Shown here in pieces: positions 5,136 to 56,285 of a stretch of 64,000 nt of DNA. A program made the position numbers and the translations under genes. Within the stretch, counting starts at the first letter, position 1. Every line of letters begins with the position of its first letter. Source of the stretch: Chitinophagales bacterium (GTDB taxonomy: Bacteria > Bacteroidota > Bacteroidia > Chitinophagales > JADIYW01); NCBI GenBank assembly GCA_023957245.1, contig JAMLHJ010000005.1, positions 309 to 64,308 on the forward strand, read 5' to 3'. A model generated the notes under the pieces. The model ran no database searches and was not told where the DNA came from. It worked only from the letters and a program-made list of their open reading frames with translations.

Positions 5136-5510
5136 TGTGGAGATTTGAAGATGTTGAAAATTAAAAATTACGAAGTACGAGGTACAAAATACAAAGTACG
5201 AATAAAAAAGCTGGTGGTTAATTGCTTCAAAATTTAACCACAAAGCACACTAAGCTTCTACACAAAGATCACAGAGTTTATTGAAATAATGCGGAGATTT
5301 GAAGATGTTGAAAATTAAAACTCACGAAGTACGAGGTACAAAATACGAAGTACGAATAAAAAAGCTGGAGGTTGATTGCTTCAAAATTTAACCACAAAGC
5401 TCACAGAGTTTCTACACAAAGCTCACAGAGTTTATTGAAATAATGTGGAGATATGAAGATGTTAAATTAAAAAATTACGAAGTACGAGGTACAAAATACG
5501 AAGTACGAAT
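5128..5510. repeat. tandem 154-bp mosaic intergenic repeat, about 2.4 copies
   Basis: Hand alignment gives units starting at 5128/5136, 5282/5290 and 5436/5444. Each unit contains TGGAGATTTGAAGATG, the TACGAAGTACGAGGTACAAAATACGAAGTACGAAT block, the CTGGTGGTT...TTAACCAC hairpin core and a CACAAAG tail. Homology begins inside the last codons of the transporter gene. Confidence 0.9.
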
Positions 5511-5551
5511 ACCAAATTGATGTCCCATGACATCACTCGAATATACCCAAC

Positions 5552-5579
5552 AAAAAAAGACCTTTTAAGGTCTTTTTTT
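5552..5579. terminator. bidirectional rho-independent terminator candidate
   Basis: AAAAAAAGACCTT-TT-AAGGTCTTTTTTT is a GC-containing stem flanked by an A-run and a T-run. It lies between the convergent transporter gene and the 5611-6135 gene. Confidence 0.7.
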
Positions 5580-5610
5580 GTTATATTCTATTCAATTTTA
5601 ATAGGATAGA

Positions 5611-6135
5611 TTAATCTCCACCAGTTCCTTTGAATTGATCTTCTTTAAATCTAAAAAGGATATTAAAAGAAGTCAATGAACCATAGATTCTTGTAATATA
5701 TTGTTGTAAATCCACCTTTTCTTCATCACTTAATTTAGAAGCATTAATTTTTTGCTCCATCACTCTAAGTCGGTCTCTGACCATTACAATTTTATGAAAG
5801 AAGGTTTCTATTGGGATAATTTTAGATTGCAAATCTGAATTTTCTGGTTGAAGTACAAGATTGCCACCTTTCCATTTGTCTCCCAAATAAATCTGTTCAG
5901 AAGGAGCTGTAATAGGCTCTAAAATGTCTCTGAGCAATGTTTCTACTTGATCTAAAGAAATAGCATCATCTGGTTTTTGTACCTCTTTGACAATGACATA
6001 ATTGTCAAAAGTCTTTCCTATTTCCTTTTCACCATGATCTGAAAAATAAATCTCATAATATCTTTCTTCCACACCAATAATGACACCATTTCCATAAGTC
6101 GGATGTATCAAACGTGTTCCAATACCCAATTCCAT
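5611..6135 (-). CDS. hypothetical protein
   Basis: 174-aa ORF with ATG start, tightly followed by frr on the same strand. The N-terminal IGTRLIHPTYGNGVIIGVE is vaguely CarD/Tudor-like, but I cannot assign it. Confidence 0.6.
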   Translation of the reverse strand: MELGIGTRLIHPTYGNGVIIGVEERYYEIYFSDHGEKEIGKTFDNYVIVKEVQKPDDAISLDQVETLLRDILEPITAPSEQIYLGDKWKGGNLVLQPENSDLQSKIIPIETFFHKIVMVRDRLRVMEQKINASKLSDEEKVDLQQYITRIYGSLTSFNILFRFKEDQFKGTGGD

Positions 6136-6143
6136 AGCTCTAC

Positions 6144-6707
6144 TTATATTGTCATAATTTCTTCTTCTTTCATTGCCAACATTTTATCCACCTTAGTGAT
6201 ATAATCATTGGTGATATGTTGAATATCTTCTTCGGCACCTTTGGACAAATCTTCAGATAGACCTTCTTTTAATAATGCTTTAATAGCATCATTTCCTTCT
6301 TTACGAGCAGAGCGAATTACTACTTTGGAATTTTCTCCTGAAGCTTTCGTTTGTTTGGCTAAATCTTTTCTTCTTTCTTCTGTCAAAGGAGGAATTACAA
6401 TACGAATATTTTCACCATCATTTTGAGGTGTCACTCCCAAATTGGCTTGAAAAATTGCTCTTTCAACATCACCAATTAATTTTCTTTCAAAAGGAACAAT
6501 AACAAGCGTTCTAGCATCTTGAAGTTTTACAGACGCTACTTGTTGAAGAGGTGTAGGCATACCGTAATACTCAATTTTGATAGCAGAAAGCATATCAGGG
6601 CTTGCTTTACCTGCTCGCACTCTTCTCAAATCTTCTTCCAAATGCTTTAATGCTTTATGCATCGCTTCTTTGGTCTCGTCAATTATAAACTGTACTTCTT
6701 CATTCAT
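6144..6707 (-). CDS. frr: ribosome recycling factor
   Basis: 187 aa with a typical RRF sequence (LRRVRAGKASPDML, PPLTEERRKDL). Sits in the conserved pyrH-frr arrangement. Confidence 0.93.
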   Translation of the reverse strand: MNEEVQFIIDETKEAMHKALKHLEEDLRRVRAGKASPDMLSAIKIEYYGMPTPLQQVASVKLQDARTLVIVPFERKLIGDVERAIFQANLGVTPQNDGENIRIVIPPLTEERRKDLAKQTKASGENSKVVIRSARKEGNDAIKALLKEGLSEDLSKGAEEDIQHITNDYITKVDKMLAMKEEEIMTI

Positions 6708-6725
6708 AATAAAATCTTTTGAATA

Positions 6726-7433
6726 TTATTTAACTATTGTACCAATTTTTTCTCCGTTCAAAATTCTAAGAATATTGCCTTGCTCTTTAATAGAAAAAAC
6801 AACGATAGGTAATTTATTTTCCTTACATAACGTAAAAGATGTTTGATCCATAACCCCCAATTCTCTAGTAATTACTTCTTGATAAGAGATTGATTCAAAT
6901 TTAGAAGCATCTGCATTTTTCTTAGGATCAGCTGTATAAATACCATCAACACTTGTGCCTTTCAACAATGCATCTGCACCTATCTCAACAGCACGAAGTG
7001 CAGCAGCTGAGTCTGTAGTAAAGAAAGGATTGCCTGTACCTGCTGCCAAAATAATTACTCGACCTTTTTCTAAGTGTCTTACTGCTTTTCTTTTGATATA
7101 TGGTTCGCAAACTTGTTGAATAGAAACTGCAGACATTAATCTGGTTTCTATACCTCTTTTTTCCAAAACACTTTGGAGAGCCATTCCATTGATGACAGTA
7201 GCCAACATACCCATATAATCACCTTGAACTCTGTCAATTCCAAGATTGCCAGCTTGTAATCCTCTAAAGATATTTCCACCACCGATAACAACGGCAAGTT
7301 CATATCCTTGATCTACAATACTTTGAATTTCATCACCAAAATGATTAATCATATTAGCTTGAATACCGAAATGCTCGTCACCCATCAAAGCTTCACCGCT
7401 CAGTTTGAGTAAAATACGTTTAAATTGTCCCAT
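6726..7433 (-). CDS. pyrH: UMP kinase
   Basis: 235 aa. RILLKLSGEAL N-terminus, GGGNIFRG motif, and position between tsf and frr. Confidence 0.93.
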   Translation of the reverse strand: MGQFKRILLKLSGEALMGDEHFGIQANMINHFGDEIQSIVDQGYELAVVIGGGNIFRGLQAGNLGIDRVQGDYMGMLATVINGMALQSVLEKRGIETRLMSAVSIQQVCEPYIKRKAVRHLEKGRVIILAAGTGNPFFTTDSAAALRAVEIGADALLKGTSVDGIYTADPKKNADASKFESISYQEVITRELGVMDQTSFTLCKENKLPIVVFSIKEQGNILRILNGEKIGTIVK

Positions 7434-7449
7434 CAGGAGTTGAAATTAT

Positions 7450-7477
7450 AAAAAAAAGGAGAGAATTTCTTCTCTCC
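7450..7477 (-). terminator. rho-independent terminator downstream of tsf
   Basis: On the minus strand, GGAGAGAA-GAAA-TTCTCTCC is followed by T8. It lies directly after the tsf stop. Confidence 0.75.
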
Positions 7478-7497
7478 CTTACAAAATATAGTTCTTA

Positions 7498-8328
7498 TTA
7501 TGATAAAGATACTCTCTTAAAGCTAAGTACCTTCAGATCTTTGTCAACAGACTTCACGTACTGTTCAACAGTTTTACCACTATCTTTAACAAATTGCTGA
7601 CTTAATAAAGTCGATTCTTTCAACATAGAGTTGACAGCACCATCAGCGATTTTGTCTAAAAGATTTTCTGGTTTACCAGCAGCAACAGCTTTTTCTCTTG
7701 CGATAGCACGTTCACGATCTTTCACCTCATCACTTACACCTGAAGCATCTAAAGCAATAGGGTTCATAGCAGCAATTTGCATTGCTACATCTTTACCTGC
7801 AACAGTATTTGCATCGTTCAATGATTGGTTAAGCTCAACGAGTACACCCATTCTGTATCCCATGTGAATATATGGCACCAATCCTTTACCAGAAACAGAT
7901 TCATATTTTTTCACTTCGATTTTCTCTCCGATTTTAGCTACTGTATCTAAAAGGACATTAGCTACTGTAGTACCTCTAAAAGGAGTTGCGTTCAAAGCAT
8001 CTACATCAGCAGGTTGAGTTTCCAATGCTAATTGAGCGATTTCTTTTGCTAATGCAATAAAATCTTCATTTTTAGCAACGAAATCTGTTTCAGCAGATAA
8101 ATTTAATAGGATACCGAAAGTGCTATCTTCATTAGTCAAGGCGATAACTACACCTTCATTAGCTTCACGCTCAGCTCTGTTAGCTGCAATCTTAGCTCCT
8201 TTTTTACGAAGGAAATCGATTGCTGCTTCAAAATCACCATTAGTTTCAACTAGTGCTTTTTTGCAGTCCATCAAACCAGCACCAGTTTCTTGTCGTAATT
8301 TATTTACTTCTGCAGCAGAAATTGACAT
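7498..8328 (-). CDS. tsf: translation elongation factor Ts
   Basis: 276 aa. N-terminal UBA-like AAEVNKLRQETGAGLMDCKKAL is typical of EF-Ts. Lies downstream of rpsB. Confidence 0.93.
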   Translation of the reverse strand: MSISAAEVNKLRQETGAGLMDCKKALVETNGDFEAAIDFLRKKGAKIAANRAEREANEGVVIALTNEDSTFGILLNLSAETDFVAKNEDFIALAKEIAQLALETQPADVDALNATPFRGTTVANVLLDTVAKIGEKIEVKKYESVSGKGLVPYIHMGYRMGVLVELNQSLNDANTVAGKDVAMQIAAMNPIALDASGVSDEVKDRERAIAREKAVAAGKPENLLDKIADGAVNSMLKESTLLSQQFVKDSGKTVEQYVKSVDKDLKVLSFKRVSLS

Positions 8329-8354
8329 ATAATATTTATTTTTTTGTTTATAGA

Positions 8355-9155
8355 TTATTCGCTATCAGTTGAACCTTCTTCGTCTTCTCCTTCTTCATCG
8401 TTAGCGTCAATAACTTCATCAACGACAACTTCTTCTTCTTCAACTTCTTCTTCAGAATCTTTATCACGTTTTCTATCAGCCAAACCTTCTTTAATAGCTT
8501 CGATGACGTATTCAGTGATAATTTTGATAGATTTAGAAGCATCGTCATTTGCTGGGATAGCAAAGTCAACTAAAGTAGGATCTGAGTTAGTATCAACGAT
8601 ACCAAAAGTTTTAATACCTAAGTTTTTAGCTTCAGCCAAAGCAATGTGTTCATGAGAGATATCTACCATGAAGATAGCAGCAGGGATACGCAATAAATGC
8701 TCGATACCACCTAATACTTTATCCAATTTTGCTTGTTGACGAGCCAACATTAGACGCTCTTTCTTAGTAATGTTGTTCAATGCACCATCAGCCAACATTT
8801 TCTCAATGTTTTGTTTTTTCTTGATAGATTTTTTGATGGTAGCAAAGTTAGTCAACATACCACCCAACCAACGTTCAGTTACATAAGGCATATTAACACT
8901 AGCAGCTAATTCAGCTACTATATCTTTCGCTTGTTTTTTAGTAGCGACGAAAAGGATTTTCTTTCCAGATTTTGCCATTTGGCGTAAAGCAGCAGCAGAC
9001 TCTTCGAGTTTAGACTGAGTTTTATTCAAATCTATGATATGAATACCTTTACGTTCCATGAATATATATGGCAACATCTTTGGATTCCATTTTTTCTTGA
9101 GGTGACCAAAGTGAGCACCTGCATCCAATAATTGTTGCTGAGATATTTTTTCCAT
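8355..9155 (-). CDS. rpsB: 30S ribosomal protein S2 (with acidic C-terminal extension)
   Basis: 266 aa. LLDAGAHFGH and WLGGMLTN motifs. The last ~40 aa are almost entirely D/E. Confidence 0.93.
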   Translation of the reverse strand: MEKISQQQLLDAGAHFGHLKKKWNPKMLPYIFMERKGIHIIDLNKTQSKLEESAAALRQMAKSGKKILFVATKKQAKDIVAELAASVNMPYVTERWLGGMLTNFATIKKSIKKKQNIEKMLADGALNNITKKERLMLARQQAKLDKVLGGIEHLLRIPAAIFMVDISHEHIALAEAKNLGIKTFGIVDTNSDPTLVDFAIPANDDASKSIKIITEYVIEAIKEGLADRKRDKDSEEEVEEEEVVVDEVIDANDEEGEDEEGSTDSE

Positions 9156-9185
9156 ATTGCAGTTACAAATTGTTCTGTGAATAAA

Positions 9186-9578
9186 TTAACGTTTACTGAA
9201 CTGGAAGCTCTTACGGGCTTTTTTACGTCCAAATTTCTTACGCTCAACCATTCTAGGGTCACGCGTCAATAACTTCTCTGATTTAAGAGTCGGTTTATTC
9301 TCTTCATTGATTTTCACCAAAGCACGAGAAACACCCAAAGCAATCGCTTCAATTTGACCCTTAATTCCTCCGCCTTTTACATTTACTTTTACATCATATT
9401 GACCTACAGTATTTGTAATTTCGAAAGGTTGAGTTAATTTAATCGCTAAGTGTTGAACGGGAAAATAAACTTTAGAATCTTTACCATTAACAGTAATTGT
9501 TCCTGTTCCTGGCTTAAGATAAACTCTAGCAACAGAAGTCTTTCTTCTGCCTAATGCATTAGTATAGGTAGTTGCCAT
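9186..9578 (-). CDS. rpsI: 30S ribosomal protein S9
   Basis: 130 aa. GGGIKGQIEAIALGVSRAL and a C-terminal basic tail ending in KR. Confidence 0.93.
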   Translation of the reverse strand: MATTYTNALGRRKTSVARVYLKPGTGTITVNGKDSKVYFPVQHLAIKLTQPFEITNTVGQYDVKVNVKGGGIKGQIEAIALGVSRALVKINEENKPTLKSEKLLTRDPRMVERKKFGRKKARKSFQFSKR

Positions 9579-9584
9579 TTCTTA

Positions 9585-10028
9585 TTAAAATTTTATAATT
9601 TCAGGTTTTTGCGCTGCATAAGAATGCTCAGCTCCTACAACTACATGTAGTTTTTTGTACATGGCTCTACCTAGTCTTGTTCTAGGAAGCATGTGTTTTA
9701 CTGCATTCTCAATAATAAATTCTGGCTTTTTAGCCAAGGCTTCTTTTGGTGTCATAAAACGTTGCCCTCCAGGATAACCAGTGTGTCTAACATAGACTTT
9801 ATCATTTAATTTGTTACCTGTCAATACAACTTTCTCTGCATTGATAACAATTACATGATCACCAGTATCTACATGTGGAGTATAGCTCGCTTTGTGCTTA
9901 CCTTGTAGAACCTTTGCAATTTCAGAACTCAAACGACCTAATGTTTGATTTTCTGCATCTACTACCAACCATTTACGCTCAACTGTCTGAGGGGTGGCTG
10001 ATACCGTACGATAACTTAATGTATTCAC
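9585..10028 (-). CDS. rplM: 50S ribosomal protein L13
   Basis: 147 aa. [20 protein letters not shown] is typical of L13. Sits in an operon with rpsI. Confidence 0.93.
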
Positions 10029-10062
10029 GGAAATAATGGTTTTCTTTTTTCTAATTAAAATT

Positions 10063-10076
10063 GGACTGCAAAGATA
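10063..10076 (-). promoter_or_regulatory. Bacteroidota-type -7 promoter box (TATCTTTG) upstream of rplM
   Basis: The minus strand reads TATCTTTGCAGTCC, which matches the TAnnTTTG consensus, about 40 nt upstream of the rplM ATG. A TTTG lies about 23 nt further upstream. The identical 14-mer recurs upstream of rpmH. Confidence 0.6.
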
Positions 10077-10181
10077 GTATTTATTTATATACCTAGTTGC
10101 AAACTCTTAATTTATTTTTGAAAATAATTATTAACTATTTGATTATCAATGAAATTATCGCACAAAATAATTATAAGTTAT

Positions 10182-10433
10182 GATGGACGATGGACAGTGG
10201 ACGATGGACAATGGGCGATGGACTATGGGCGATGGACGATGGACGATGGACGATGGACGATGGACGATAGACGATGGGCGATGGACGATGGACAATAGAC
10301 TATGGACTATGGACGATGGACAGTGGACGATGGACGATAGACAATGGACGATGGACAATGGACGATGGACGATGGACGATAGACGATAGACAATGGACGA
10401 TGGACAATGGACAATGGACGATGGACGATGGAC
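10182..10433. repeat. heptanucleotide tandem array, 36 units (GATGGAC / AATGGAC and variants)
   Basis: Parsed by hand into 36 consecutive 7-mers with no phase break. Variants are GATGGAC, AATGGAC, AGTGGAC, GATAGAC, AATAGAC, TATGGAC, AATGGGC, GATGGGC and TATGGGC. Confidence 0.97.
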
Positions 10434-10500
10434 GAAGAGACGAAGAGACGAAGAGACGAAGGGAAAATACTGGAGGTTGAGCGCTTCGACTTTATTCAGC
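10434..10500. repeat. mosaic repeat module: (GAAGAGAC)x3 plus conserved core CTGGAGGTTGAGCGCTTCGA
   Basis: An 8-bp repeat in 3 copies directly abuts the heptamer array. It is followed by the same core seen at at least 9 other sites in the window. Confidence 0.8.
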
Positions 10501-10584
10501 AACCGCCTGTCAAAACCAGAAAGAAGATGTGAGAAGTAAAAAAATACCTTATTATAAATCTTTAAATGTTAATATATTAGAGAA

Positions 10585-12435
10585 ATGTTTCGTCGTCCTC
10601 TAGCAATTATTATTGGAGTGGGTTTGATATTGTTGAGTTTTCTACATTATTCAAATGCGCTTACAAATGATTTTTCTTTAGACGATTATTTGTATTTAGC
10701 ACAAGTAAAAAATATCCATCGCTGGTCTGACTTGCAATCTATATTCCAAATCCCTTTTGGGATATCAGATTATCGACCTATAACTACACTTTCATTTGGC
10801 ATTGAAAAATTATTATCTGGAGGGAATATCTACCCTCATATTGCTCACTGGGTCAACCTAATATTATACATTTTATGTAGCTTGAGTCTTTACCGTTTTG
10901 TAAAAAAAATAGCTACTCATCAATATTTACCTCATATAGCTATCATCACTACTATTATTTTCATAACAATACCTCTCCACAACTCCATGATATCCAATAT
11001 AAAATCGAGAGATGGCTTACTCAGTTTTATGTTTGGGATGATTTATTTAAATCTTATTATAGAAGCATTAACATACAAAAGGAATAATCTAGGGAAAATA
11101 ATTCTATCAATTTTGGCAATAGGATTTGTCATATTATCTATCTTTTCTAAAGTTGATGGCTTCAATTTTATATTCATCACGCCATTGCTTTATATCATCT
11201 ACTTTAAAAAGTTCAGTTTAAAATATATTATTAGAACAATCATCATCTTCATACTCCTTACCAAAATCAGCATTAGCATATACTCTAATTGGACAACACA
11301 AAAAGATACGGCTGTAGAAAAATACAATAAAGTTGTACAAAATGATCCTGTTTTATTCACAGAAAACCCTATCGTCAATTATACTTCTTGGGATGATAAA
11401 ATTGCATACTCGATTCTCACCTATTATGAATATACTAAAATGCTCTTACGACCTAATCATCATTACTATTATTATGGTTATGATATGGTTCCTGTATTAA
11501 AAATAAATGACCCAAAAGTAATAGCTGCTGGAATATTTTTGCTCTTACTAATAGTATCTATATTCCTATTTTACAAGAAAAATAAGGTTTATAGTTTCGG
11601 TGTTGCCTTTTATTTAGTTGGACTATTGTATTGTTCCAATTTGATTATCCCTGTTTCTGGTATTGTAGCTGATAGATATGCTTTTATAGCATCTGCTGGT
11701 GCTTGTACTGCAATAGCTGTACTCATCCAAATGGTAATGGTCAAACTAATAACTCTAAAGAAACAGGCTATCCCAATTACTTATAGAAACAAAACAATCA
11801 CTCAAATTCCTACATCTACTATATATCTAATTCCAATATTCTTATTGAGCTCGTTGTTCTATCTACCTGAAAATAGAGAACGGTCAAAAGAATGGGCAAG
11901 TCTTCAAAGTATATTTGAAGCAGATCTTCCTGAAATCACTCATCAGTCTTATGAAGGAAATCTCATTGCAATAAAAAGTTTTATGGCAATGGCACAGAAT
12001 AATGACTCCATCGAAAGTAAGAAATATTATAACAAAGTGCTGTATTATGGAAGTAATGCAAAAAGAATATACCCTGATGGGCAATATGCACAAGACTTAA
12101 TGATTACAGCATATTATGAACTAGGTCAAATGTATGAAGCTATGGAATTGGCTAGGAAGGTGGTAGAAAAATTTGATTCTACTGAAATTGGATGGAGAGT
12201 ACTCAACGAATATTATTATATACAAGAATATAGAGATAGTCTAGAAAATTCATGCAAAAAGGTATTAAGTTTTGCTCCTTTAGATCCTGTAGTCAATATG
12301 ATGTATGTCAGTAATCTCAAATATCTTCATCAAACCAATGTAGCTCAACAATATTTAGATGAACTAGAAAGAAAATATCCTGAAAGTTCAATTCCAGAGG
12401 ATACAAGAAAATATTTGAACTCCAAGCCTGAATGA
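10585..12435 (+). CDS. multi-pass membrane protein, PMT/TMTC-like glycosyltransferase-type N-terminal region with TPR-like C-terminal domain
   Basis: 616 aa with about 10 or more TM segments. The N-terminal pattern (DDYLYL...DYRPITTLSF...HIAHWVNLILYIL) resembles family-39/TMTC-like membrane glycosyltransferases. The soluble C-terminal ~180 aa is helical-repeat-like. The family call is by eye only. Confidence 0.65.
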   Translation: MFRRPLAIIIGVGLILLSFLHYSNALTNDFSLDDYLYLAQVKNIHRWSDLQSIFQIPFGISDYRPITTLSFGIEKLLSGGNIYPHIAHWVNLILYILCSLSLYRFVKKIATHQYLPHIAIITTIIFITIPLHNSMISNIKSRDGLLSFMFGMIYLNLIIEALTYKRNNLGKIILSILAIGFVILSIFSKVDGFNFIFITPLLYIIYFKKFSLKYIIRTIIIFILLTKISISIYSNWTTQKDTAVEKYNKVVQNDPVLFTENPIVNYTSWDDKIAYSILTYYEYTKMLLRPNHHYYYYGYDMVPVLKINDPKVIAAGIFLLLLIVSIFLFYKKNKVYSFGVAFYLVGLLYCSNLIIPVSGIVADRYAFIASAGACTAIAVLIQMVMVKLITLKKQAIPITYRNKTITQIPTSTIYLIPIFLLSSLFYLPENRERSKEWASLQSIFEADLPEITHQSYEGNLIAIKSFMAMAQNNDSIESKKYYNKVLYYGSNAKRIYPDGQYAQDLMITAYYELGQMYEAMELARKVVEKFDSTEIGWRVLNEYYYIQEYRDSLENSCKKVLSFAPLDPVVNMMYVSNLKYLHQTNVAQQYLDELERKYPESSIPEDTRKYLNSKPE

Positions 12436-12551
12436 TTTATGATTTATGAAGACGATGGACGATAGACGATGGACAATGGACGATGGACAATAGACGATGG
12501 ACGATGGACGATGGACAATGGACAATGGACAATGGACGATGGTCGATGGAC
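12434..12551. repeat. heptanucleotide tandem array: 2 GATTTAT units, a 6-nt GAAGAC, then 14 GATGGAC-type units
   Basis: Hand-parsed. The 14 GATGGAC-type units span 12454-12551. The array begins overlapping the TGA stop (12433-12435) of the upstream gene. Confidence 0.95.
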
Positions 12552-12620
12552 AAGTTACATTCTGCCTCTAAAATAATCTAACAACATCACCACATTATCT
12601 AATCTTCACGTCTTCACATT

Positions 12621-12656
12621 AAAAAAGGGTTATCTGAAATCAGACAACCCTTTTTT
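12621..12656. terminator. bidirectional rho-independent terminator candidate
   Basis: AAAAAAGGGTTATCTGA-AA-TCAGACAACCCTTTTTT lies between the convergent 10585-12435 gene and the giant gene. Confidence 0.75.
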
Positions 12657-12676
12657 ATTTTGAATAATGAGAAAAA

Positions 12677-15600
12677 TTATTGTTTCACTACTTTGGCATC
12701 AAATTCTTTTCCGCTTTCGTCTGTGAATGAGATGATATATGTAGCTGCAGGGTAATTGGCTAAGCTCAATTTGACACGGTTGACACCAGTAGCCAAGTCC
12801 ACTTCTTTATTACCCATCACTTTGCCATTCATATCTAAAATGCGAATATTGACATGTTGATTCAATTTAGAATTAATTGTCGCTTCCACAGGGCCATCAG
12901 TAGGATTTGGATGAAGTGCTACAAATCCATCTCCTTTACTAGCTAAGTTCAACTCAATTTGAATGATCTTAGAATAGTGATGAGCACCATCAAAGTCCAC
13001 TTGTTTCAATCTGTAATAATTGATACCATTGAAAGGTTCATTATCCCATAATTGATACTGATGTGGATCTGAAGTAGTACCATGCCCTTTCACAGTGCCA
13101 ATAGATGACCAATTTTTAGCATCATTGCTTTTCTCTACAATGAAGTAATCATTATTCAATTCAGAAGCAGTCTCCCAATTCAACAACACTTTATCTTCTA
13201 TCAATGTACCTGTAAAATGTACCAATGTAATCGGTAGAACATTAATATCTGGACTGACTCGGATAGCTATACCACCTCCAGAGAAACCATCCCATGCTAC
13301 TTCTGCAAAGTGAGTACCCAACATATTACCCACTGCACCATAAGGCAAACTTGACAACAAGTGTCCGACATAAACAAAATTATTGATAGTAGTCGGTTGA
13401 ATATCAGTCGTAGCAGAGTTCACAGGAACACTAAATGCTGTAACTGGACCAGCGACAAATTGTGTATGATCGGTATTTTTGAATACCTGAGCAGGGCCAG
13501 TCGTTAAAGGTAATCCACAAGTCATATTATAAAGTGCTCGCCATGCATTTGCTCTTGCTAAAGTCGCAGCTTCCTCAGCTGGTTTATAGAAAAATCTTGT
13601 TTTTATAAAGCCGTTAGGAGTACCAGATATCACTCTTACATTCCAATATCTCGGCATGACAAAGTTACCCTCGCATGCTGTCAAATCTTGAGCAAAGAAC
13701 ACATCATCCTGAGTAGTAGGGTTAGGAGTCACTGTAATATCCACCTCTGCAGTAAACAAAGCGGTATTGGCACCAGGTACAACGGATGGTGTTTTCTGAA
13801 TAGCAAAAAGATATTCATACGGTGTGGCTGTAGTAGCATACCAAGTCCATCCTGCAGTGTCCACACATACTTCAACAGCTGTAGTCGTTGCATTATCTGG
13901 AGCATAAACAATATAAGCAGGGGATGATGTACACAAACAAGTATCTACGACAGTAACAGATTTAGAAACAGCACTTGTAGTTGAACAAGGTGCTGGAGCT
14001 TCTGCTCTGACGTAATATATGATATTCGTTGCAGGTGAATGTGTAAACACTCCAGTAGTATTAGCAGCTATCTGAGTGCCTCCACTTGTAGGATCACCAT
14101 TATACAATACCCATTGAGCACCAGCACCTAAAGAACCTCCATGTTGCGTAATCGTAATTGCATCTCCTTTACACACCATATCAGGTGCAGTAATAGAATC
14201 TGGTGCAACTGATGGCTCAACAATAGTGACAGTCACAGGTGTAGGAATTGAATTGCCACATCGGTTTTCGATACGAACATAATAAGTAGTTGTCGCAGCA
14301 GGTCTAGGTATCTTAATAGTACGATATGTCATCAAGGTATCTCCCTTGGGAACACCTTTATTGCCGATATAGATAGGGGTATGAGGTCCTAAAGTATCTG
14401 GTCTAGTATCATAGAAATAGAACTTGCCATCATTACCAAGATTTCCTCCCCATACTCTGAGAGATATAGAATCTGGAGCAGATGCATCATTACATATTAA
14501 AGTATCTGAAGCTCGCAAGGAATCTTGCTGTATAAATGGTATCACTGTTACGACTGTTCTTCTCTGCCATCTTGGAGAATAAGTATCTTTACTTGCAGCT
14601 GCTCTAAATGCAGCATCAGTAAAGCAACGACCGACCAGATTGACAAAATAAGTGGTAGTTGTATCTATGATGGTCTGTATCTGCGAGAATGGAGCGCGCT
14701 TTGTAATAATAGTATCACCAGTAATCGAATCAATTGATGCAACCGCTATACTATCTCCTGTGTATGAAGTATAAGTCAAGAAATCAGTAGTGGCTGAACC
14801 TGGGTTTCTGAAACAAGTAGCAGTAGAAATATCTAGCGGGTTGGTACACCTAGAACCAAAGCAAGCGTTAGAAGGACCCAACCTATTATTATAAGGTCCA
14901 CCTTCTAAGCTATACCACGCATACTGCTGCATAAACTTAGCTTTAAAACCATTGATAGAATCAGTCGGCATCTCCAATGTAATCAATGTGCCTGGACATA
15001 CAGTATCAGGAGCTATCATCATACAAGAGCCTTGATAATGCAAATAATCATTCAACCCATTTGTAGCATTACTACACCATGCATTGGTATATGGAACAGG
15101 AACTGCTGCTGCAGTAGCATAACACAATCCCCAAGGAGTTTCCTTATTATAAATCAAAGAATATACTTCATTACTAGTATCTCTACAAACTAGGTCTCCA
15201 GGACTCATTGACACCATACGTCTGAAATAGACAGTTCCTGGATCGGTATTTCCTGGTGTTTGATTAAATACATTCGTAGATGCACTATAAATATTAAATG
15301 CTGTACCTACACCAGGATCCCAACTTTGAGCAACAGCACCAATACCTTGTGGTGCACCAGATGTAGTCGGCCAAGAAGGAGCTACAGTGGTCCATACTCC
15401 ATTCACTTTTATCTGCCATTCATAGAAATAAGTAGTAGGGTCAGAAGGTCCTAATGGAATATTACCATTCATGACACCGATATCCACATTATTCGCAGTA
15501 ACATTTCCTGAATTTCGTAAAGGAGGAGCAATAGAAGCATTACAATCTGCAGCTGGTGGAATAGGAAAATCAATCAAATTATTAGAAAAATTATCTTTCA

Positions 15601-34080: not shown

Positions 34081-35610
34081 CTAATCTTCGTCATCAAAAT
34101 TAATAGGAAGAGAGGCTCTAAGCCTTCTTTTGATTTCTTCGTTATAATTTTCTAGAAGCCAATTGAAATAATTTTTTGTACTCTTTGCAGTACAATTGGT
34201 ATAAACACTCAATCGGTATTTGATTTCATCTTGTAAGATTTTCAATAAATCTAAGCCGTGAAATAAATCTTCAGCGTTTTCCAAGATTCTATTAAAATGG
34301 TCATCTACAGATAAGTCAATAGCTTCAATCGTCTTTTTGCCTTTGGAGAGAAGGAAATAATATTCTTCTTCCATATCAAAATCAAAAGTATCAGTTTTGG
34401 GAAAGTTCAATTTTACCTCTTCTGGCAAAACATACATTAAACCCTTATCCAATTTTTCTTCTCTTTCTACTAGATGCTCTAGGAATCTTTCGGGATTGAC
34501 AAAAACATCTTGCCAATCAATATAATCTTGCCACAGACCTAATCTACGTGCATTATTACCTAGGTCAATAATTGTAAACTGGTCTTTATTATCTAATTTT
34601 CTACTACCACGTCCAACCATTTGGTGATAAAGTGTTAGAGAACGAGTAGCACGATTGAGGATTATTGTTTCCACAGTAGGCTCATCAAATCCCGTTGTCA
34701 AAATACCTACTGAAGTGATAATCGCATCAGGAGTATCTCTGAACCATTCTAGTGTTTCTTTCCTCTCTTGCTTATTATTGGTGCTATCCAAATGGCGAAT
34801 TTCAAAACCTGCATCATCAAAAAGACGCTCAACTTGTTTGGACATTGCAATACTACTATTGAAAATCAGTGTTTTAGTTCCAAGCGCCTTTTCTTTATAA
34901 GCAGCGATTAACCTTTCCTGCATTTCATAACCGCTATAAATTCTATCTAAAGAACTTACAGTATAATCGCCATCCATTCCTATTTTCAATCCACCTAAAT
35001 GAACATCATAGGTAAACGTAGTAGAAGAGCTTAAAAACCCCTTCTCAACTAGTTCTTTGATACTATCCCCTATAATTAACTTAGAATAATTGTCTTTGAG
35101 GGGCAATTGCTGATTGGAACTGAGAGGTGTTGCAGTAACTCCCAATATAATTGTTCCTTTAAAGTAGTGAAAGATTTTTCTAAATGAATTGTAATGAGCT
35201 TCATCGACAATCACCAATTCAATATCTTTCAGATAACAGCCATCAGATTTAAGGCGATTATTGAGCGTCTCGACCATTGCCAAAAAGCACATAAAGTTTT
35301 CTTGATCGTCCAAATCTCCAACTTCGCTAATAATTAATTTAGAAGGGACATTGGCTTCTTCTAATGCATTGGCTGTCTGTTTTAACAACTCAATTCTATG
35401 CGTCAAAATAAGTACTTTACCTCCACTCTGATTAATGAATCTTCTGGCAATCTCAGCAAAGATTACAGTCTTACCTCCTCCAGTAGGCAATTGAAATAAA
35501 AGATTTTCCTTCACAGGATTATCTGTCAAGTGCTGAAAAATCTTTTCAATATAAACTTCCTGATATGGATAAAGTTTCCTCGCGGTCTGAGGGCGCTCAA
35601 AAATCATCAT
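34081..35610 (-). CDS. superfamily-2 DEAD/DEAH-box helicase (type III restriction Res-subunit-like core) with uncharacterised C-terminal domain
   Basis: 509 aa. Walker A is LPTGGGKTVIFAEIA, motif II is VIVDEAHY, motif III-like is GVTATP, and motif VI is QMVGRGSR. The C-terminal ~140 aa were not recognised. Confidence 0.85.
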   Translation of the reverse strand: MMIFERPQTARKLYPYQEVYIEKIFQHLTDNPVKENLLFQLPTGGGKTVIFAEIARRFINQSGGKVLILTHRIELLKQTANALEEANVPSKLIISEVGDLDDQENFMCFLAMVETLNNRLKSDGCYLKDIELVIVDEAHYNSFRKIFHYFKGTIILGVTATPLSSNQQLPLKDNYSKLIIGDSIKELVEKGFLSSSTTFTYDVHLGGLKIGMDGDYTVSSLDRIYSGYEMQERLIAAYKEKALGTKTLIFNSSIAMSKQVERLFDDAGFEIRHLDSTNNKQERKETLEWFRDTPDAIITSVGILTTGFDEPTVETIILNRATRSLTLYHQMVGRGSRKLDNKDQFTIIDLGNNARRLGLWQDYIDWQDVFVNPERFLEHLVEREEKLDKGLMYVLPEEVKLNFPKTDTFDFDMEEEYYFLLSKGKKTIEAIDLSVDDHFNRILENAEDLFHGLDLLKILQDEIKYRLSVYTNCTAKSTKNYFNWLLENYNEEIKRRLRASLPINFDDED

Positions 35611-35754
35611 TTAACTGTTCTCCTGTAAATATTTTTATTCTAAAAGCGAATGTGCAAAGTTGCACAATTAAAATCAATCTATGTTCATCTCTATTTATAT
35701 TTCAAATTAAGTTCACTTCTATTTGATAAAAGTTTAAAACCAAAAATTGAAATA

Positions 35755-37797
<2,043 letters not shown>

Positions 37798-52156: not shown

Positions 52157-53020
52157 TTATTTAAAAGAGGCTTGAGAAGCTTTTTCTTCCTTCTGTTCCT
52201 CCATCTTTATTTCCCTTATTTTTCTAGCATCAGCAATCAGACTTTCAATTTCTCTTTTGACTTTTGCTACATCTTGTCCCAATTGGTAATCATGGTCATC
52301 CATATCATCAAAATACATCGGTTTACCTATTTTGATAATCACTTTAGATTTGAAAAAATAAGGCACTAGCAATGGTGCAGCTGGAAATCTTAAGAATTTC
52401 TCCAAAAAATCAACATTGCCAAAGTTGTACATAATTTCTTCACATCCAGCAATGCCCACAGGAATAATTGGCGATTGAGTCTTTTTAGCCATATACATAA
52501 ATCCATTCCCAAATCTTTGAAGGCGATACCTCTTAGACCAAGGTTTGGAAATGCCCTTGGCTCCTTCAGGAAAGACCATCACAGCCTCATCATTATTGAG
52601 CATTTTGATACAATTTTCTACATCCCCCAATGCTCCACCCATCTGACTGAACCAAATACTAAAAAATGGAATTGTAGGGATAAATCTTTCATACATTCCC
52701 TTACTTGCACGAGGGGCCAATGGGTTTTTAGCCAATGCATATCCTAGTAAAATAGCATCTATGGGCAGTTGTCCACTATGATTGGCTATGACTAAACAGC
52801 GTCCAGTTGCAGGAATATTTTCGTAACCTTCGACTTCGACTTCAAAATAATCTTCATACATGAATCGACCTAAGGCAATAAATTGCTTGATAGTTTTAAT
52901 ATTGAAACCCCATGCATCAAACCCATATTTTCCTATCTCATTAGGAAATTTGTTTAACATCTCATCTGTATCTTTGCTTTTGGGCAAAAAATCAAGAAAT
53001 TTATCTAATATGCTGCTCAT
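52157..53020 (-). CDS. lysophospholipid acyltransferase (PlsC-like) family protein
   Basis: 287 aa. The VIANHSGQLPIDA block (HX4-5D-type), FPEGAKG and IIPVGIAG blocks are typical of the PlsC superfamily. Confidence 0.78.
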   Translation of the reverse strand: MSSILDKFLDFLPKSKDTDEMLNKFPNEIGKYGFDAWGFNIKTIKQFIALGRFMYEDYFEVEVEGYENIPATGRCLVIANHSGQLPIDAILLGYALAKNPLAPRASKGMYERFIPTIPFFSIWFSQMGGALGDVENCIKMLNNDEAVMVFPEGAKGISKPWSKRYRLQRFGNGFMYMAKKTQSPIIPVGIAGCEEIMYNFGNVDFLEKFLRFPAAPLLVPYFFKSKVIIKIGKPMYFDDMDDHDYQLGQDVAKVKREIESLIADARKIREIKMEEQKEEKASQASFK

Positions 53021-53072: not shown

Positions 53073-54146
53073 GTGAAAAAATTAATTCCTTTTTTAATAT
53101 TAATAATTACATTTTTTTATGGATGTAAAAATGCTTCTATCGTACAGCAAACCACTCCTTCTGCTAATATAGAAAAGAGCGCTGAGAGTGACTTTAGAAT
53201 CATGACATATAATGTAGAAAATCTTTTTGATTTATATGATGACACTTTAAAAAAAGATGACGATTTTCTCCCTTGGGGAATGTATAAATGGAATGCAGAG
53301 CGATATCAAACTAAATTAAAAAAGATTTTTAAAGTCATTACCAATCTCAGTGAATGGGAATATCCTGCATTAATAGCACTGACAGAAATCGAAAATCAAA
53401 GGGTATTGGAAGACCTTGTTCAAGCGACTCCCTTGACTGAATCTGATTTTAATATTATCCATGAAGAATCTCCAGATGAACGAGGAATAGACGTTGCTTT
53501 GCTCTATCGCCGTTCTTTATTTAGACCAATACAACATCAGATTATTCCTGTCACAATGCCTCAAGATCCTCATTTCAAAACTAGAGATATCTTGTATGTC
53601 AGTGGCATAATTAACAAAACAGATACTTTGCACTTTTTCGTCGTTCATTTTCCGTCTAGAAGAGGAGGTGAAGCTATCAGTGAACCCAAAAGAATATTAG
53701 CCGCAGAAAAAGTAAGGGCAAAATGTGATAGTATTTTAAATAAACAAGCGCAAGCCAATATCATCATTACAGGAGATTTTAATGATGAGCCGAGCAATGC
53801 AAGCGTTTATGAGGTACTAAGAGGAAAAGGTGATTTGAATGAGATGCAAGATGGGGACTTTTTCAATATGATGTATGCAGCACACAAAAAGGGACATGGC
53901 TCCTATAAATTTCAGTCATCATGGAATATGTTGGACCAATATATTATCAGTCCAGCATTATTGAACCCCGACCATTCTATCTATACGACTACGACCTCTG
54001 CACATATTTTTCAACCAGATTGGCTCTCTGTTAAAGATGATGTATATCCTGGTGTCAAACCTAATAGAACATACAGTGGGCCTAGTTATTTAGGAGGTTA
54101 TAGCGACCATTACCCTATATTTATGGATATTTTCTTTAAAAAATAA
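53073..54146 (+). CDS. endonuclease/exonuclease/phosphatase (EEP) family lipoprotein
   Basis: FRIMTYNVENLFD, LTEIEN, TGDFND and SDHYPI motifs. The start is set at GTG 53073, giving the lipoprotein signal (M)KKLIPFLILIITFFYGC. An alternative ATG lies at 53010. The track start at 52860 overlaps the divergent gene by 160 nt. Confidence 0.8.
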   Translation: MKKLIPFLILIITFFYGCKNASIVQQTTPSANIEKSAESDFRIMTYNVENLFDLYDDTLKKDDDFLPWGMYKWNAERYQTKLKKIFKVITNLSEWEYPALIALTEIENQRVLEDLVQATPLTESDFNIIHEESPDERGIDVALLYRRSLFRPIQHQIIPVTMPQDPHFKTRDILYVSGIINKTDTLHFFVVHFPSRRGGEAISEPKRILAAEKVRAKCDSILNKQAQANIIITGDFNDEPSNASVYEVLRGKGDLNEMQDGDFFNMMYAAHKKGHGSYKFQSSWNMLDQYIISPALLNPDHSIYTTTTSAHIFQPDWLSVKDDVYPGVKPNRTYSGPSYLGGYSDHYPIFMDIFFKK

Positions 54147-54375
54147 TTCCCATCTAGGTTCAAATCTATCATTATTGCAAAAGTTGTCTTTAGCATACTA
54201 AACTTTATATCCTACTCAAAAGTCTCATACGATTTGTAGTAATAAATAAATATTTTAGAAAAAGTACTATCTTAGGAATAAAATATTCACTATAGAATTG
54301 AGGTAAATATTTAGACTTTAAAAAGCCAATGTAGAAGGGATACACAAGTATTATTTAAAATAGTAAATTTACAAA

Positions 54376-55152
54376 GTGGAGGAACAAGGATATATAGAAT
54401 TGAAGATCAATGGATTCAATGAAGATAATCTATTAGAACCAAAAGACCTTGACATTACTGAGATTAAAGAAATCATCAGTGACATAGAGTCCTTTTTGTA
54501 TCCATCAAGAGCTGAAAAATCTGAACGTCCACATATTTCTTATAAATTAGAAAAGGGTTCTGTTAGAAATATTTTTCATCTACCTATTTCCGCAGTATTA
54601 CTTTTTAATGGATTATGTTCAGAAATAAAAAATAGACAGAATATAGATTTTTTAGACAATAAAAGGGCAGAGATTATTGATAAATTTCAGCGTAAAGCTA
54701 CTGAAAGAAATTTAGAATTTTCATTTAACAGTTCCACTGCCCAAAAAGCCATCTTAAAAATCAATAAAGATACATCCTATTTTAAGGTAGTCGCTTCATA
54801 TATCGATACGGAGTTTATTTTATATGGGAAAATTAATGAAGAAGGTGGAAACAATCCTAATTTTCATATTTTGACTAAAGAGTATGGAAAATTAATAGTA
54901 AGCGCAACCGAACGTCAACTTTTAGAAGGAGAAAAACGGTTATTTAAAGTTTATGGAATCAGAGCTAAAGGCAAGCAAAGTCTTTCAGACAAGAAACCTT
55001 ATGACCTGAAATTAATAGATTATATTACTTACAACCCTAACTATGATGAACACAAGTTGGATTTACTGATTGAAAGAGCTTCAACAAAATGGAATTCCAT
55101 CCCCAATGTTGATTTATGGCTTGAACAAATAAGAGGAGGTTCAAATGGATAG
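54376..55152 (+). CDS. uncharacterised 258-aa protein, upstream partner of the PIN-domain protein
   Basis: A long ORF whose only possible starts are non-ATG (GTG 54376 or TTG 54400). It has no internal Met. Its stop overlaps the PIN gene start by 8 nt. No family or DNA-binding motif recognised. Confidence 0.65.
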   Translation: MEEQGYIELKINGFNEDNLLEPKDLDITEIKEIISDIESFLYPSRAEKSERPHISYKLEKGSVRNIFHLPISAVLLFNGLCSEIKNRQNIDFLDNKRAEIIDKFQRKATERNLEFSFNSSTAQKAILKINKDTSYFKVVASYIDTEFILYGKINEEGGNNPNFHILTKEYGKLIVSATERQLLEGEKRLFKVYGIRAKGKQSLSDKKPYDLKLIDYITYNPNYDEHKLDLLIERASTKWNSIPNVDLWLEQIRGGSNG

Positions 55153-55615
55153 TATTTTAATAGATACTTCTTTTTGTATTCGATTGCTAAAAAGCAATGA
55201 CACTTTACACCAAAATGCAAAAGACTATTTTAAATACTTCTTAGAAAAGAAAATTGAAATCTACCTTTCCACTATAGTTATTGCAGAATACTCAGTAAAA
55301 GACGACCCTATTAACTTGCCTATAGAGTTTGTAAAAGTTATTCCATTTGATTTCTTTGACGGAAAAACTGCAGGTGAATTTCACTCTATTTTACTGAATC
55401 ACAAGGAACAAGTCGCAAATATTGAACGAAATGTAATAAAAGATGATTGTAAGTTGATGGCACAATTGTACAATAGAAAAATACAAGGCTACATTACTAA
55501 AGATAGAAAATCATTTAATCAGATTATTTCACCATTGCAAGCAGTTAAAGATTTTCCAATCGTATTGTTAGATTTAGAAATACCATTGAAAGATTTTAAA
55601 GGAGAACTATTTTAA
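55145..55615 (+). CDS. PIN-domain (VapC-like) ribonuclease
   Basis: 156 aa. Acidic residues are spaced as in PIN domains: D7 (ILIDTS), E48 (VIAEYS), D100/D101 (IKDDCK) and D120 (ITKDRKSF). An AGGAGG lies 6 nt upstream of the ATG. Confidence 0.78.
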   Translation: MDSILIDTSFCIRLLKSNDTLHQNAKDYFKYFLEKKIEIYLSTIVIAEYSVKDDPINLPIEFVKVIPFDFFDGKTAGEFHSILLNHKEQVANIERNVIKDDCKLMAQLYNRKIQGYITKDRKSFNQIISPLQAVKDFPIVLLDLEIPLKDFKGELF

Positions 55616-55619
55616 TGTT

Positions 55620-56285
55620 CTACAAAAATCCTTGCATCGCTTTCACCACACCTTTAATATCTAAATCCATTGGGAAATGCCCTCCATCCACTTCGACATA
55701 AGGTTCATCAGGCGATCTGACTAGCTTATCCGATTTGGAATGGATACGCAAAGGATGAGGAAGGACAGACAATGGTTTTTCATCTAATGCCAGCACCATG
55801 CTTATTTTAAATAATTCTTCATTATTAAAATCTTTCATTTGCAACATTGCCCTTTCCATTGGGACAGCGACGGGTTTGCCTTTGACTTTATCCAACATAT
55901 ATTTTCTCGCATATCTACTCCCCGTAAACCCTGAAATGCTTAAAAATGGTGTAGTGAACCATGGATAGGAAAGAGGATGAACCACTTTGCCACAATCACT
56001 AAATCCTGCAATCATACAGATTTCATTTCCAATAATTTCTCTGATTAAAAAAGCAAAATATCCACCAGTAGAATGTCCTACCAATTTATCTTCAGGTTGT
56101 ATTCCATAATGTTTGATAATCAACTTGACTATTTCCCATCCACTAGTATTGAAAAAAGGAACTTGAGAAAGGATTTTTCGATAATCTACATGCTTGATTT
56201 CATAATCTTTCAAATAGGGAATCAATGGGTCGTAGGCTTCTGAATTTTCTCCAAACCCAGGAAATAAAAATATCCTTTGGTTCAT
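55620..56285 (-). CDS. alpha/beta hydrolase
   Basis: 221 aa. Nucleophile elbow VGHSTGG and a C-terminal GGHFPM. Its start overlaps the SDR stop by 1 nt. Confidence 0.7.
   Translation of the reverse strand: MNQRIFLFPGFGENSEAYDPLIPYLKDYEIKHVDYRKILSQVPFFNTSGWEIVKLIIKHYGIQPEDKLVGHSTGGYFAFLIREIIGNEICMIAGFSDCGKVVHPLSYPWFTTPFLSISGFTGSRYARKYMLDKVKGKPVAVPMERAMLQMKDFNNEELFKISMVLALDEKPLSVLPHPLRIHSKSDKLVRSPDEPYVEVDGGHFPMDLDIKGVVKAMQGFL

Follow-up and report, generated by a model that had tools for sequence, protein, structure and literature searches.

PIN-domain nucleases of the VapC type form the most abundant toxin family, and the antidotes known for them are, to our knowledge, almost all small DNA-binding proteins. 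In VapBC and FitAB, the C-terminal helices of the antitoxins VapB and FitA bind the cleft of VapC (PMC5499597). PIN modules with non-canonical partners have been described by Matelska et al. (2017), among them PIN_10 with the DUF433 antitoxin VapB45, a PIN cluster with DUF4325, and DUF4411 with an HTH and a DUF955 protease. Here we describe a two-gene cassette at 54376-55615 of a 64,000-nucleotide stretch of contig JAMLHJ010000005.1 (hereafter the window, meaning the whole stretch that was analysed), from a Chitinophagales metagenome-assembled genome (MAG) in which both proteins are deposited as 'hypothetical protein'. The cassette joins a gene for a 258-aa protein of an undescribed family, the partner, to a gene for a PIN protein, and is probably, though by no means certainly, a VapC-type toxin-antitoxin (TA) cassette with a new, large, structured antitoxin.

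A further described system bears on the expression of this pair. Ribosomes of the Bacteroidia have been reported as 'blind' towards the Shine-Dalgarno (SD) motif, with bS21, bS18 and bS6 sequestering the anti-SD (PMC13000453, PMC9976891, PMC10798248). In Flavobacterium johnsoniae, only rpsU has been reported with a strong SD, and its control depends on an SD that is recognised only by ribosomes free of bS21, the rpsU product (PMC13000453, PMC9976891).

Linkage, decay and mobility of the gene pair

The partner open reading frame (ORF) occupies 54376-55152 on the forward strand, starts with GTG (an alternative TTG lies at 54400) and contains no in-frame ATG; the PIN ORF, of 156 aa, follows at 55145-55615 on the same strand. 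The two share the 8 nt ATGGATAG at 55145-55152, which hold the PIN start codon and the partner stop codon and may serve translational coupling. A preliminary description of the window had already recorded two ORFs with an 8-nt overlap and a partner that can start only at a non-ATG codon, and its coordinates stand.

A partner-anchored scan of 185,579 species genomes recovered the close clade in 47, and in 45 of these 47 loci a PIN match lies immediately downstream of the partner, with the same overlap wherever the PIN start was aligned. From the other side, a PIN-anchored metagenome scan found the partner present in all 37 loci with room upstream; the same 8-nt overlap recurs in about 90 independent loci. 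Distant relatives keep the pair in five cases out of five (Ignavibacteriales, Bacteroides, Pontibacter, Aquirufa and one further contig, of 3.9 Mb), with PIN genes of 158-165 aa that overlap the partner by 8-11 nt. Bordetella bronchiseptica XX35 'plasmid pA' (NZ_CP132331.1, L056/L057) also carries a full-length partner-PIN pair at 34497-35762, with a 12-nt gap; relatives that keep the linkage at 25-40% identity include those of Ignavibacteriales and this Bordetella element. Furthermore, the pairwise non-synonymous distances of partner and PIN co-vary (Spearman 0.72). Judged from gene order, partner and PIN are linked in every informative locus, and the consistent adjacency of partner homologues to PIN genes, proposed earlier as a check, was borne out from both sides.

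The manner in which the pair decays is equally informative. After loci were pooled and de-duplicated, both genes were intact in 62, the PIN gene was broken beside an intact partner in 11 (by frameshift, truncation or nonsense mutation, the last in 4), both genes were broken in 3, and no locus in the pooled set had a broken partner with an intact PIN gene. By our own arithmetic, all 11 disruptions would fall in PIN by chance with a probability of about 2e-5 if they struck in proportion to length (468 of 1242 nt). The intact loci include two in which the partner ends 4-5 residues early, just after R253/G254, with PIN intact; where the partner is lost from residue 248 onward (one locus), PIN is also broken. 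Such one-sided decay is expected if PIN is harmful without its partner, and on this comparative evidence it is the signature of a toxin and its antidote. Since the partner is never lost alone, the upstream gene would be the antidote that a cell cannot lose while PIN is intact, which argues against the partner being a mere activator or co-subunit.

The only close-clade copy found in a cultured isolate, that of Pedobacter alpinus KCTC 42456 (L040; NZ_JBHULV010000010.1, 8001-9240), is a double pseudogene, with a partner stop at about codon 184 and a PIN frameshift near codons 10-18. Intact distant copies occur in the isolates Pontibacter pamirensis and Aquirufa ecclesiirivi.

Several features of the loci point to movement between genomes. 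Among the neighbouring ORFs of cassette loci, 194 of 241 are singletons, and groups of cassettes at >=90% nucleotide identity mix Flavobacteriales, Chitinophagales, Bacteroidales and Cytophagales labels; these MAG taxonomy labels are coarse, and 'Leptospira' and 'Bifidobacteriaceae' are probably mis-binned. Cross-locus similarity begins about 20-30 nt upstream of the GTG and ends exactly at the PIN stop. In the window, the sequence carried with the cassette includes a putative promoter block at 54346-54375 (+), which consists of an AT-rich stretch, the -7 box TAAATTTA (54364-54371) and CAAA. Cassette GC content is 32.5 +/- 1.7% whatever the flanks (31-60%), falls below the flanks in 41 of 44 loci and is uncorrelated with them; for the window cassette it is 30.0% against 35.1%. 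Together, these patterns mark out a self-contained, accessory and horizontally mobile cassette of about 1.27 kb (roughly 54346-55615). The two genes are nonetheless under tight constraint: across 32 intact close-clade cassettes, median synonymous divergence (pS) is 0.70-0.73, which is saturated, and non-synonymous divergence (pN) is 0.09-0.11, for a dN/dS of about 0.05-0.07 in both genes and about 0.05 in the partner.

Individual loci add some detail. L021 and L045 have flanks of 60% and 52% GC around cassettes of 31-33%, which suggests a very recent acquisition, a chimeric contig or a mis-binned contig. A second subgroup (L003, L007, L011, L013, L014, L019, L021 and L046, and also L036) has in common a conserved, non-coding stretch of about 140 nt ahead of the partner, caatggtaggaagaccgcaca...aaatttaaacattaaaataaagacaaaa..., in which Rfam models found nothing; this block could be an extended promoter, a leader or what is left of a carrier element. 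Close to the cassette copy of L011, the contig end holds a group II intron fragment on the reverse strand (1-63; Rfam RF01999, 41.5 bits).

The two proteins and their expression signals

The assignment of the 156-aa protein to the PIN/VapC-like group comes from its modelled fold and its active-site residues rather than from hidden Markov models (HMMs), since the PF01850 match is below threshold: E = 9.5e-4 and 20.2 bits against a curated cut-off of 23.6, over residues 4-50 only. Several PIN homologues at 80-85% identity carry a precomputed PF01850 match and distant ones a 'faint' PIN match, while a profile of 7 diverse members reached none of the PDB sequences. With PF01850 sub-threshold and no PDB sequence reached, the protein represents a divergent subfamily. 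Its AlphaFold2 model is of good quality (pLDDT 89.6, pTM 0.84) and shows the PIN fold, an alpha/beta/alpha sandwich with a parallel sheet, and 18 of its top 19 Foldseek matches in the PDB are VapC or related PIN proteins (probability 1.0, E 8e-5 to 3e-3; TM scores 0.46-0.60 when normalised to the query and 0.52-0.70 when normalised to the target). The best neighbours are VapC20, Rickettsia VapC2, Shigella and Salmonella VapC, and VapC15, with E = 8e-5 for 5wzf.

The active site tells the same story. The acidic residues D7, E48, D100, D101 and D120, which the preliminary description had likened to those of VapC-type nucleases, are present and invariant in 52 close homologues; D7, E48, D101 and D120 are also invariant in 7 distant sequences (36-56% identity), where D100 is replaced by N. 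VapC and other PIN proteins are recognised by at least four acidic residues, namely an Asp after strand 1, a Glu in the helical insert after strand 2, an Asp or Glu in helix 4 and an Asp after strand 4 (PMC5499597). In the model, D7 comes after strand 3-6, helices 43-52 and 95-110 hold E48 and D101 respectively, and strand 115-117 precedes D120, so that the quartet (D7 at 55163-55165, E48 at 55286-55288, D101 at 55445-55447 and D120 at 55502-55504, all on the forward strand) occupies the positions of the VapC catalytic residues. A PIN active site is thus present on structural comparison, a point on which the initial proposal had been made to depend, and by predicted fold and active site the protein belongs to the PIN/VapC-like group.

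The partner, by contrast with this well-populated fold, belongs to a family with hundreds of members and no name. It has 519 close homologues; the 120 of them that were listed span 255-259 aa and 73-79% identity. An exhaustive search gave 442 clusters (50% identity), of which almost all are of full length (252-265 aa). The window protein has no match in Pfam (E <= 1), NCBIfam, PADLOC-DB 2.0 (E <= 1) or PHROGs, and a diverse set of 117 relatives at 22-62% identity gave no family match in Pfam or NCBIfam and only scattered single, chance-level matches in PADLOC, where the window PIN protein also has no match at E <= 1. PDB searches by sequence (window partner) or by profile (the 117 relatives) returned no meaningful match, the best sequence matches being designed helical proteins, and Foldseek against the PDB with the partner model gave nothing significant (best E-value 0.15). 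The absence of a recognisable HTH, RHH, AbrB or Phd-like region, remarked upon earlier, therefore extends to any DNA-binding or other known domain in the partner and its 117 relatives, and the HMM and fold searches then suggested matched no known antitoxin or housekeeping family.

Conservation within the family is nevertheless extensive, with more than 100 partner residues invariant across orders. Family-wide motifs comprise G61-S62, Q105, E146-x-Y-L-Y-G151, G157-G158, N-I-H164, N187-x-L-Y190 and W248-L-x3-R253-G; at the C-terminus, R253 is kept in 94% of the 117 relatives, W248 in 76% and G254 in 76%. The structure model, built from a shallow alignment, has a pLDDT of 68.9 overall, 75-91 over residues 1-140 and below 50 over residues 150-190. 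Residues 1-140 are predicted to follow a beta-alpha-beta-beta-alpha-beta, ferredoxin-like order, with only weak Foldseek matches, and residues 245-254 (codons at 55108-55137, +), which carry W248-L-x3-R253-G254, are modelled as a C-terminal helix. The large body may accordingly be pictured as a ferredoxin-like N-terminal domain with a conserved beta-rich core. The idea that the partner consists of two RRM-like halves born of an internal duplication, like RAMP/Cas6 proteins, was rejected: aligned with each other by hhalign, its N-terminal and C-terminal halves gave a probability of 4.5%.

One structural lead emerged from viral protein models (BFVD), where Foldseek gave a single partner match, the Siphoviridae DUF6575 domain-containing protein A0A8S5QA00. 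The match has E = 9.8e-6, probability 1.0 and 264 aligned columns, but TM scores of 0.27-0.36 and a root-mean-square deviation of 12 A, with a query pLDDT of 68.9. Pfam DUF6575 does not match the window partner at E <= 1 and is absent from the list of families for the 117 relatives, which gives the top 25 of 40 single-member matches. One E. coli PD defence system with experimental validation contains the domain (Vassallo et al. 2022, PMC9519451). The likeness suggested by the model is a lead, not membership.

Upstream of the partner, the expression signals are strikingly constant. The GTG start is found in 43 of 43 close-clade loci and is directly preceded by the conserved block ttTAAAattGTAAATTTGCAnn. 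Of 46 loci, 29 have an exact TAnnTTTG at -12..-5 relative to the start codon and 13 more, including the window, match it at 5 of 6 positions; TAAATTTA in the window corresponds to TAAATTTG in most relatives, and in the distant L043, L054 and L055 the GTG follows TAACTTTG or TACATTTG at a distance of 4-5 nt, so the arrangement of a box before GTG is kept even at 30-60% identity. The Flavobacterium sigma-A box occupies -12..-5, and 4-5 nt separate it from the transcription start site (PMC9723704, PMC6847099). With this spacing, transcription is predicted to start at the G of the GTG (54376), which would yield a leaderless GUG mRNA for the partner. Leaderless mRNAs make up 3.7-5.5% of transcripts in the Bacteroidota studied. 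A sigma-70 promoter scan is not applicable to this phylum.

The PIN gene is preceded by a different signal. An AGGAGG hexamer lies at 55134-55139 (+), inside the partner codons for R253-G254-G255, and is followed by 5 nt (TTCAA) and the PIN ATG; the earlier figure of 6 nt was essentially right. AGGAGG before PIN is present in most loci and conserved at synonymous sites: AGA stands at codon 253 in 30 out of 32 loci and GGA at codon 254 in 28 out of 29, whereas these codons account for 43% and 38% of the same amino acids in the rest of the two genes (p = 3e-11), and codons 246-258, with codons 1-8, have the lowest synonymous variability in the partner gene. Codon choice thus indicates that AGGAGG is selected at the nucleotide level. 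Within the window, an SD-like 5-mer precedes 2 of 44 large ORFs, and the PIN gene alone has a full, properly placed AGGAGG. A type III (ToxIN-like) RNA antitoxin or cis-RNA was set aside, there being no tandem repeats at 53900-55900, no Rfam family and no terminator-like site.

Genomic context, proposed mechanism and rival explanations

Part of the cassette loci adjoin defence genes. In 7-8 of 44, the cassette lies about 20 nt downstream, on the same strand, of a fused type I restriction-modification (R-M) hsdM-S gene with hsdR upstream, and in L001 an MmeI-type IIG enzyme is encoded just downstream (9384-13028). The R-M-linked loci share upstream sequence and cluster together, and may represent one ancestral arrangement that spread. 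Enrichment in defence islands, a check proposed in the preliminary description, is accordingly weak: about 9 of 44 loci adjoin R-M genes, most in one homologous arrangement. In the R-M-linked subset (L002, L004, L006, L012, L017 and L022; about 5000-8000 of each locus), a 23S-rRNA-IVP four-helix-bundle gene is sometimes also present, and the cassette promoter box lies inside the end of the hsdM-S coding region.

Phage carriage is documented at one site. The 39-kb circular Bordetella 'plasmid pA' encodes terminase, portal, major capsid, Bbp16 cement protein, integrase/excisionase, holin and lysozyme, a gene content that identifies it as a BPP-1-like temperate phage genome carrying the pair in an early (early or lysogeny) region; this takes the family into the Betaproteobacteria and onto a phage. 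Neither IMG/VR nor the deposited phages yielded the close clade, and a search of the deposited phages with the Bordetella homologue was negative as well. About 3 kb downstream of the distant cassette copy of L055, an Xre-family antitoxin and RES-domain toxin pair (9165-10114) forms a small TA cluster.

The surroundings of the window cassette are unrelated to it. A spacer of 229 bp and 24.5% GC separates the partner from the stop of the upstream gene (54146), as the preliminary description had it. That gene belongs to the EEP family by Pfam, and the convergent downstream neighbours are a 221-aa ORF, an SDR gene and a TetR gene; the earlier EEP, SDR and TetR labels hold by Pfam, and the 'hydrolase' label finds no support there, as the 221-aa ORF has no Pfam match. 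The listed 428-aa EEP ORF begins inside a divergent acyltransferase ORF (52157-53020; shared part 52860-53020 of the window), and its Pfam match starts only at residue 114; the true initiation codon probably lies further downstream, close to KKLIPFLILIITFFYGC, a lipoprotein-like segment. A 17-nt inverted repeat (54346-54362 and 55803-55819, 94% complementary) brackets the cassette and about 190 nt of the convergent gene. As mobile-element termini it was rejected: it is AT-rich, lies outside the cross-locus similarity boundary and is probably a chance occurrence.

On the reading favoured here, that of a VapC-type TA cassette with a new antitoxin, the downstream gene would encode a VapC-like PIN endoribonuclease, toxic through its presumed RNase activity, and the upstream gene its folded 258-aa antidote. 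The partner would bind the PIN protein directly, with its conserved C-terminal helix W248-L-x3-R253-G lodged in the nuclease cleft in the manner of the VapB and FitA C-terminal helices; this proposal draws on that analogy and on its fit with the truncation pattern. The large body would stand in place of the usual DNA-binding domain and, as pure conjecture, may act as a sensor that binds a ligand, RNA, phage or cell component controlling release, or may help to recruit the target. Transcription from the G of the GTG would supply the partner from a leaderless GUG mRNA, and PIN translation would be coupled to it through the ATGGATAG overlap behind the conserved AGGAGG. The whole may operate as an addiction or abortive-infection module on mobile DNA. 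The preliminary description had likewise suggested that the module might serve as a TA, abortive-infection or defence system and that its partner is something other than a plain DNA-binding antidote, a suggestion that linkage, one-sided decay and mobility support.

A number of observations weigh against this reading. The partner is three times larger than known antitoxins and has no DNA-binding domain, and it is under very strong purifying selection, whereas classical antitoxins are fast-evolving and partly disordered. Its most conserved segment, residues 150-190, is modelled with a pLDDT below 50, which weakens statements on the fold of the C-terminal half. Neither protein has a PADLOC match, and the remaining loci (about 80%), the window included, lie among unrelated metabolic or housekeeping genes. 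The decay tally may also contain events of common ancestry, since the frameshift region is identical in L005 and L022 and so is the stop in L063 and L082, which would leave perhaps about 9 independent events (p of about 1.5e-4), and some 'broken PIN' calls are possibly assembly errors.

The closest competitor, strict anti-phage abortive infection, overlaps with the TA reading and differs only in biological role: the partner would be a sensor that holds PIN inactive and releases it, or is itself displaced, on meeting a phage component, with defence rather than addiction or the stabilisation of mobile DNA under selection. It is a possibility to be taken seriously, even if an unlikely one as the evidence stands. 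The attachment to type I R-M genes in 7-8 loci and to the MmeI-type IIG enzyme in L001, the carriage in the early or lysogeny region of the Bordetella temperate phage, and the sole structural neighbour of the partner, a DUF6575 phage protein whose domain occurs in a validated defence system (PMC9519451), all speak for it, and a large, strongly constrained partner body would suit recognition of a conserved trigger. However, the R-M-linked loci may descend from a single arrangement, roughly four fifths of all loci sit among housekeeping genes, PADLOC lends nothing for either protein or the 117 relatives, the searches of viral collections just described were negative for both the close clade and the Bordetella homologue, and the DUF6575 match has a low TM (0.27-0.36) on a mediocre model. 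The favoured TA reading can also be carried further than we would ordinarily go, to a new class in which a folded, ultra-conserved sensor (ferredoxin-like domain, beta-barrel and Arg tail) gates PIN, and in which stoichiometry is ribosome-dependent, with the antidote made from a leaderless GUG mRNA and the toxin from behind an AGGAGG invisible to ordinary Bacteroidia ribosomes. We consider this extended version improbable. If true, PIN synthesis would rise only by coupling or when bS21-free ribosomes accumulate, which would tie toxin dosage to the translation state.

Two other explanations do without a toxin held by a binding antidote. In the first, the two proteins would make up an RNase holoenzyme without toxicity, the partner serving as RNA-binding or specificity subunit of a PIN nuclease engaged in accessory RNA processing. 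A housekeeping role of the pair was rejected on distribution, mobility and one-sided decay. PIN domains do act in rRNA and tRNA maturation (PMC5499597), and the housekeeping-like constraint (dN/dS 0.05-0.07, fixed lengths, more than 100 invariant partner residues), the want of a DNA-binding domain for autoregulation, the ferredoxin-like (RRM/ACT-type) N-terminus indicated by weak Foldseek matches and the modelled beta-beta-beta-alpha-beta-beta order at residues 142-218, which recalls an OB-type barrel, would all be at home in such an enzyme. The OB and RRM resemblances, however, come from a low-confidence model and lack a significant match, the close clade is patchily distributed, with 47 of 185,579 species carrying it, and the absence of synteny, the transfer between orders, the foreign GC content, the prophage carriage and the frequent pseudogenes are unlike such a role. 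A holoenzyme also predicts that either subunit is equally dispensable, yet 11 PIN-only losses stand against 0 partner-only losses, and we regard this explanation as a rather poor prospect. Poorer still, and very unlikely in our judgement, is an enzymatic (type VII-like) antitoxin that would modify PIN, or repair or protect its RNA target, instead of binding it stoichiometrically. Its appeal lies in the enzyme-like size, globular fold and strong constraint of the partner and in polar residues conserved across the family (D26, S62, E146, H164, N187, Y190 and R253). Yet no nucleotidyltransferase, kinase, hydrolase or other enzyme family was matched by sequence or structure, conservation at H164, D26 and E146 reaches only 83-85%, a low figure for residues in catalysis, the positions kept best are glycines (G61, G151, G157 and G158) typical of turns in a binding scaffold, and the conserved Arg-bearing C-terminal helix fits direct binding.

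Comparison with described systems

The partner family comprises hundreds of clusters across Bacteroidota, Ignavibacteriota and at least one proteobacterial prophage, and is unannotated in the resources searched; these loci are therefore likely to escape TA and defence finders built on the families that those resources hold. Beyond its inventory value, the cassette could show how a non-canonical antitoxin neutralises a PIN nuclease and whether a large antitoxin body senses a signal. It may also offer a compact natural test case for the translation of leaderless GUG mRNA and for the use of SD sequences by ribosomes that normally ignore them.

In the latter respect, the nearest parallel is rpsU of F. 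johnsoniae, with which the PIN gene shares a strong, nucleotide-conserved SD in a class whose ribosomes sequester the anti-SD. Unlike that of rpsU, the SD of the cassette lies inside the upstream coding region at the overlap, where it may only serve coupling, and its AGGAGG also encodes the conserved R-G-G. A DUF6575 protein gave the one significant structural match to the partner model, and the domain occurs in a phage and defence context, but it has no sequence similarity to the partner.

Compared with VapBC and FitAB, the cassette has the same gene order, with the antidote gene first and overlapping the toxin gene (overlapping vapBC ORFs are noted in PMC5499597), and the same accessory, horizontally mobile distribution. 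Its PIN protein shares with VapC the fold and, in their canonical places, the four acidic residues. The C-terminus of the partner is modelled as a conserved helix that bears a near-invariant Arg; in VapB and FitA, it is the C-terminal helix that enters the VapC cleft. Differences are no less marked. A typical antitoxin has about 70-100 aa with an N-terminal AbrB, RHH, HTH or PHD domain, whereas the partner is globular, about three times the size of VapB, and has neither a DNA-binding domain nor a likeness to any antitoxin family. Both cassette genes are also far more conserved than typical TA genes (dN/dS of about 0.05), the mRNA is predicted to be leaderless with a GUG start, and the PIN protein is so divergent that PF01850 scores below its cut-off. 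Because it has no small DNA-binding antitoxin, the cassette is not filed as a canonical VapBC.

The modules of Matelska et al. come closer in one respect, as they also pair a VapC-like nuclease with a partner other than a small VapB and were also predicted as TA from gene neighbourhood. The partner described here matches none of their domains, however, in Pfam searches that included its 117 relatives; it is larger, and the cassette has two components only. The system would work like VapBC and joins the minority of PIN modules whose partners are non-canonical, while matching none of those described.

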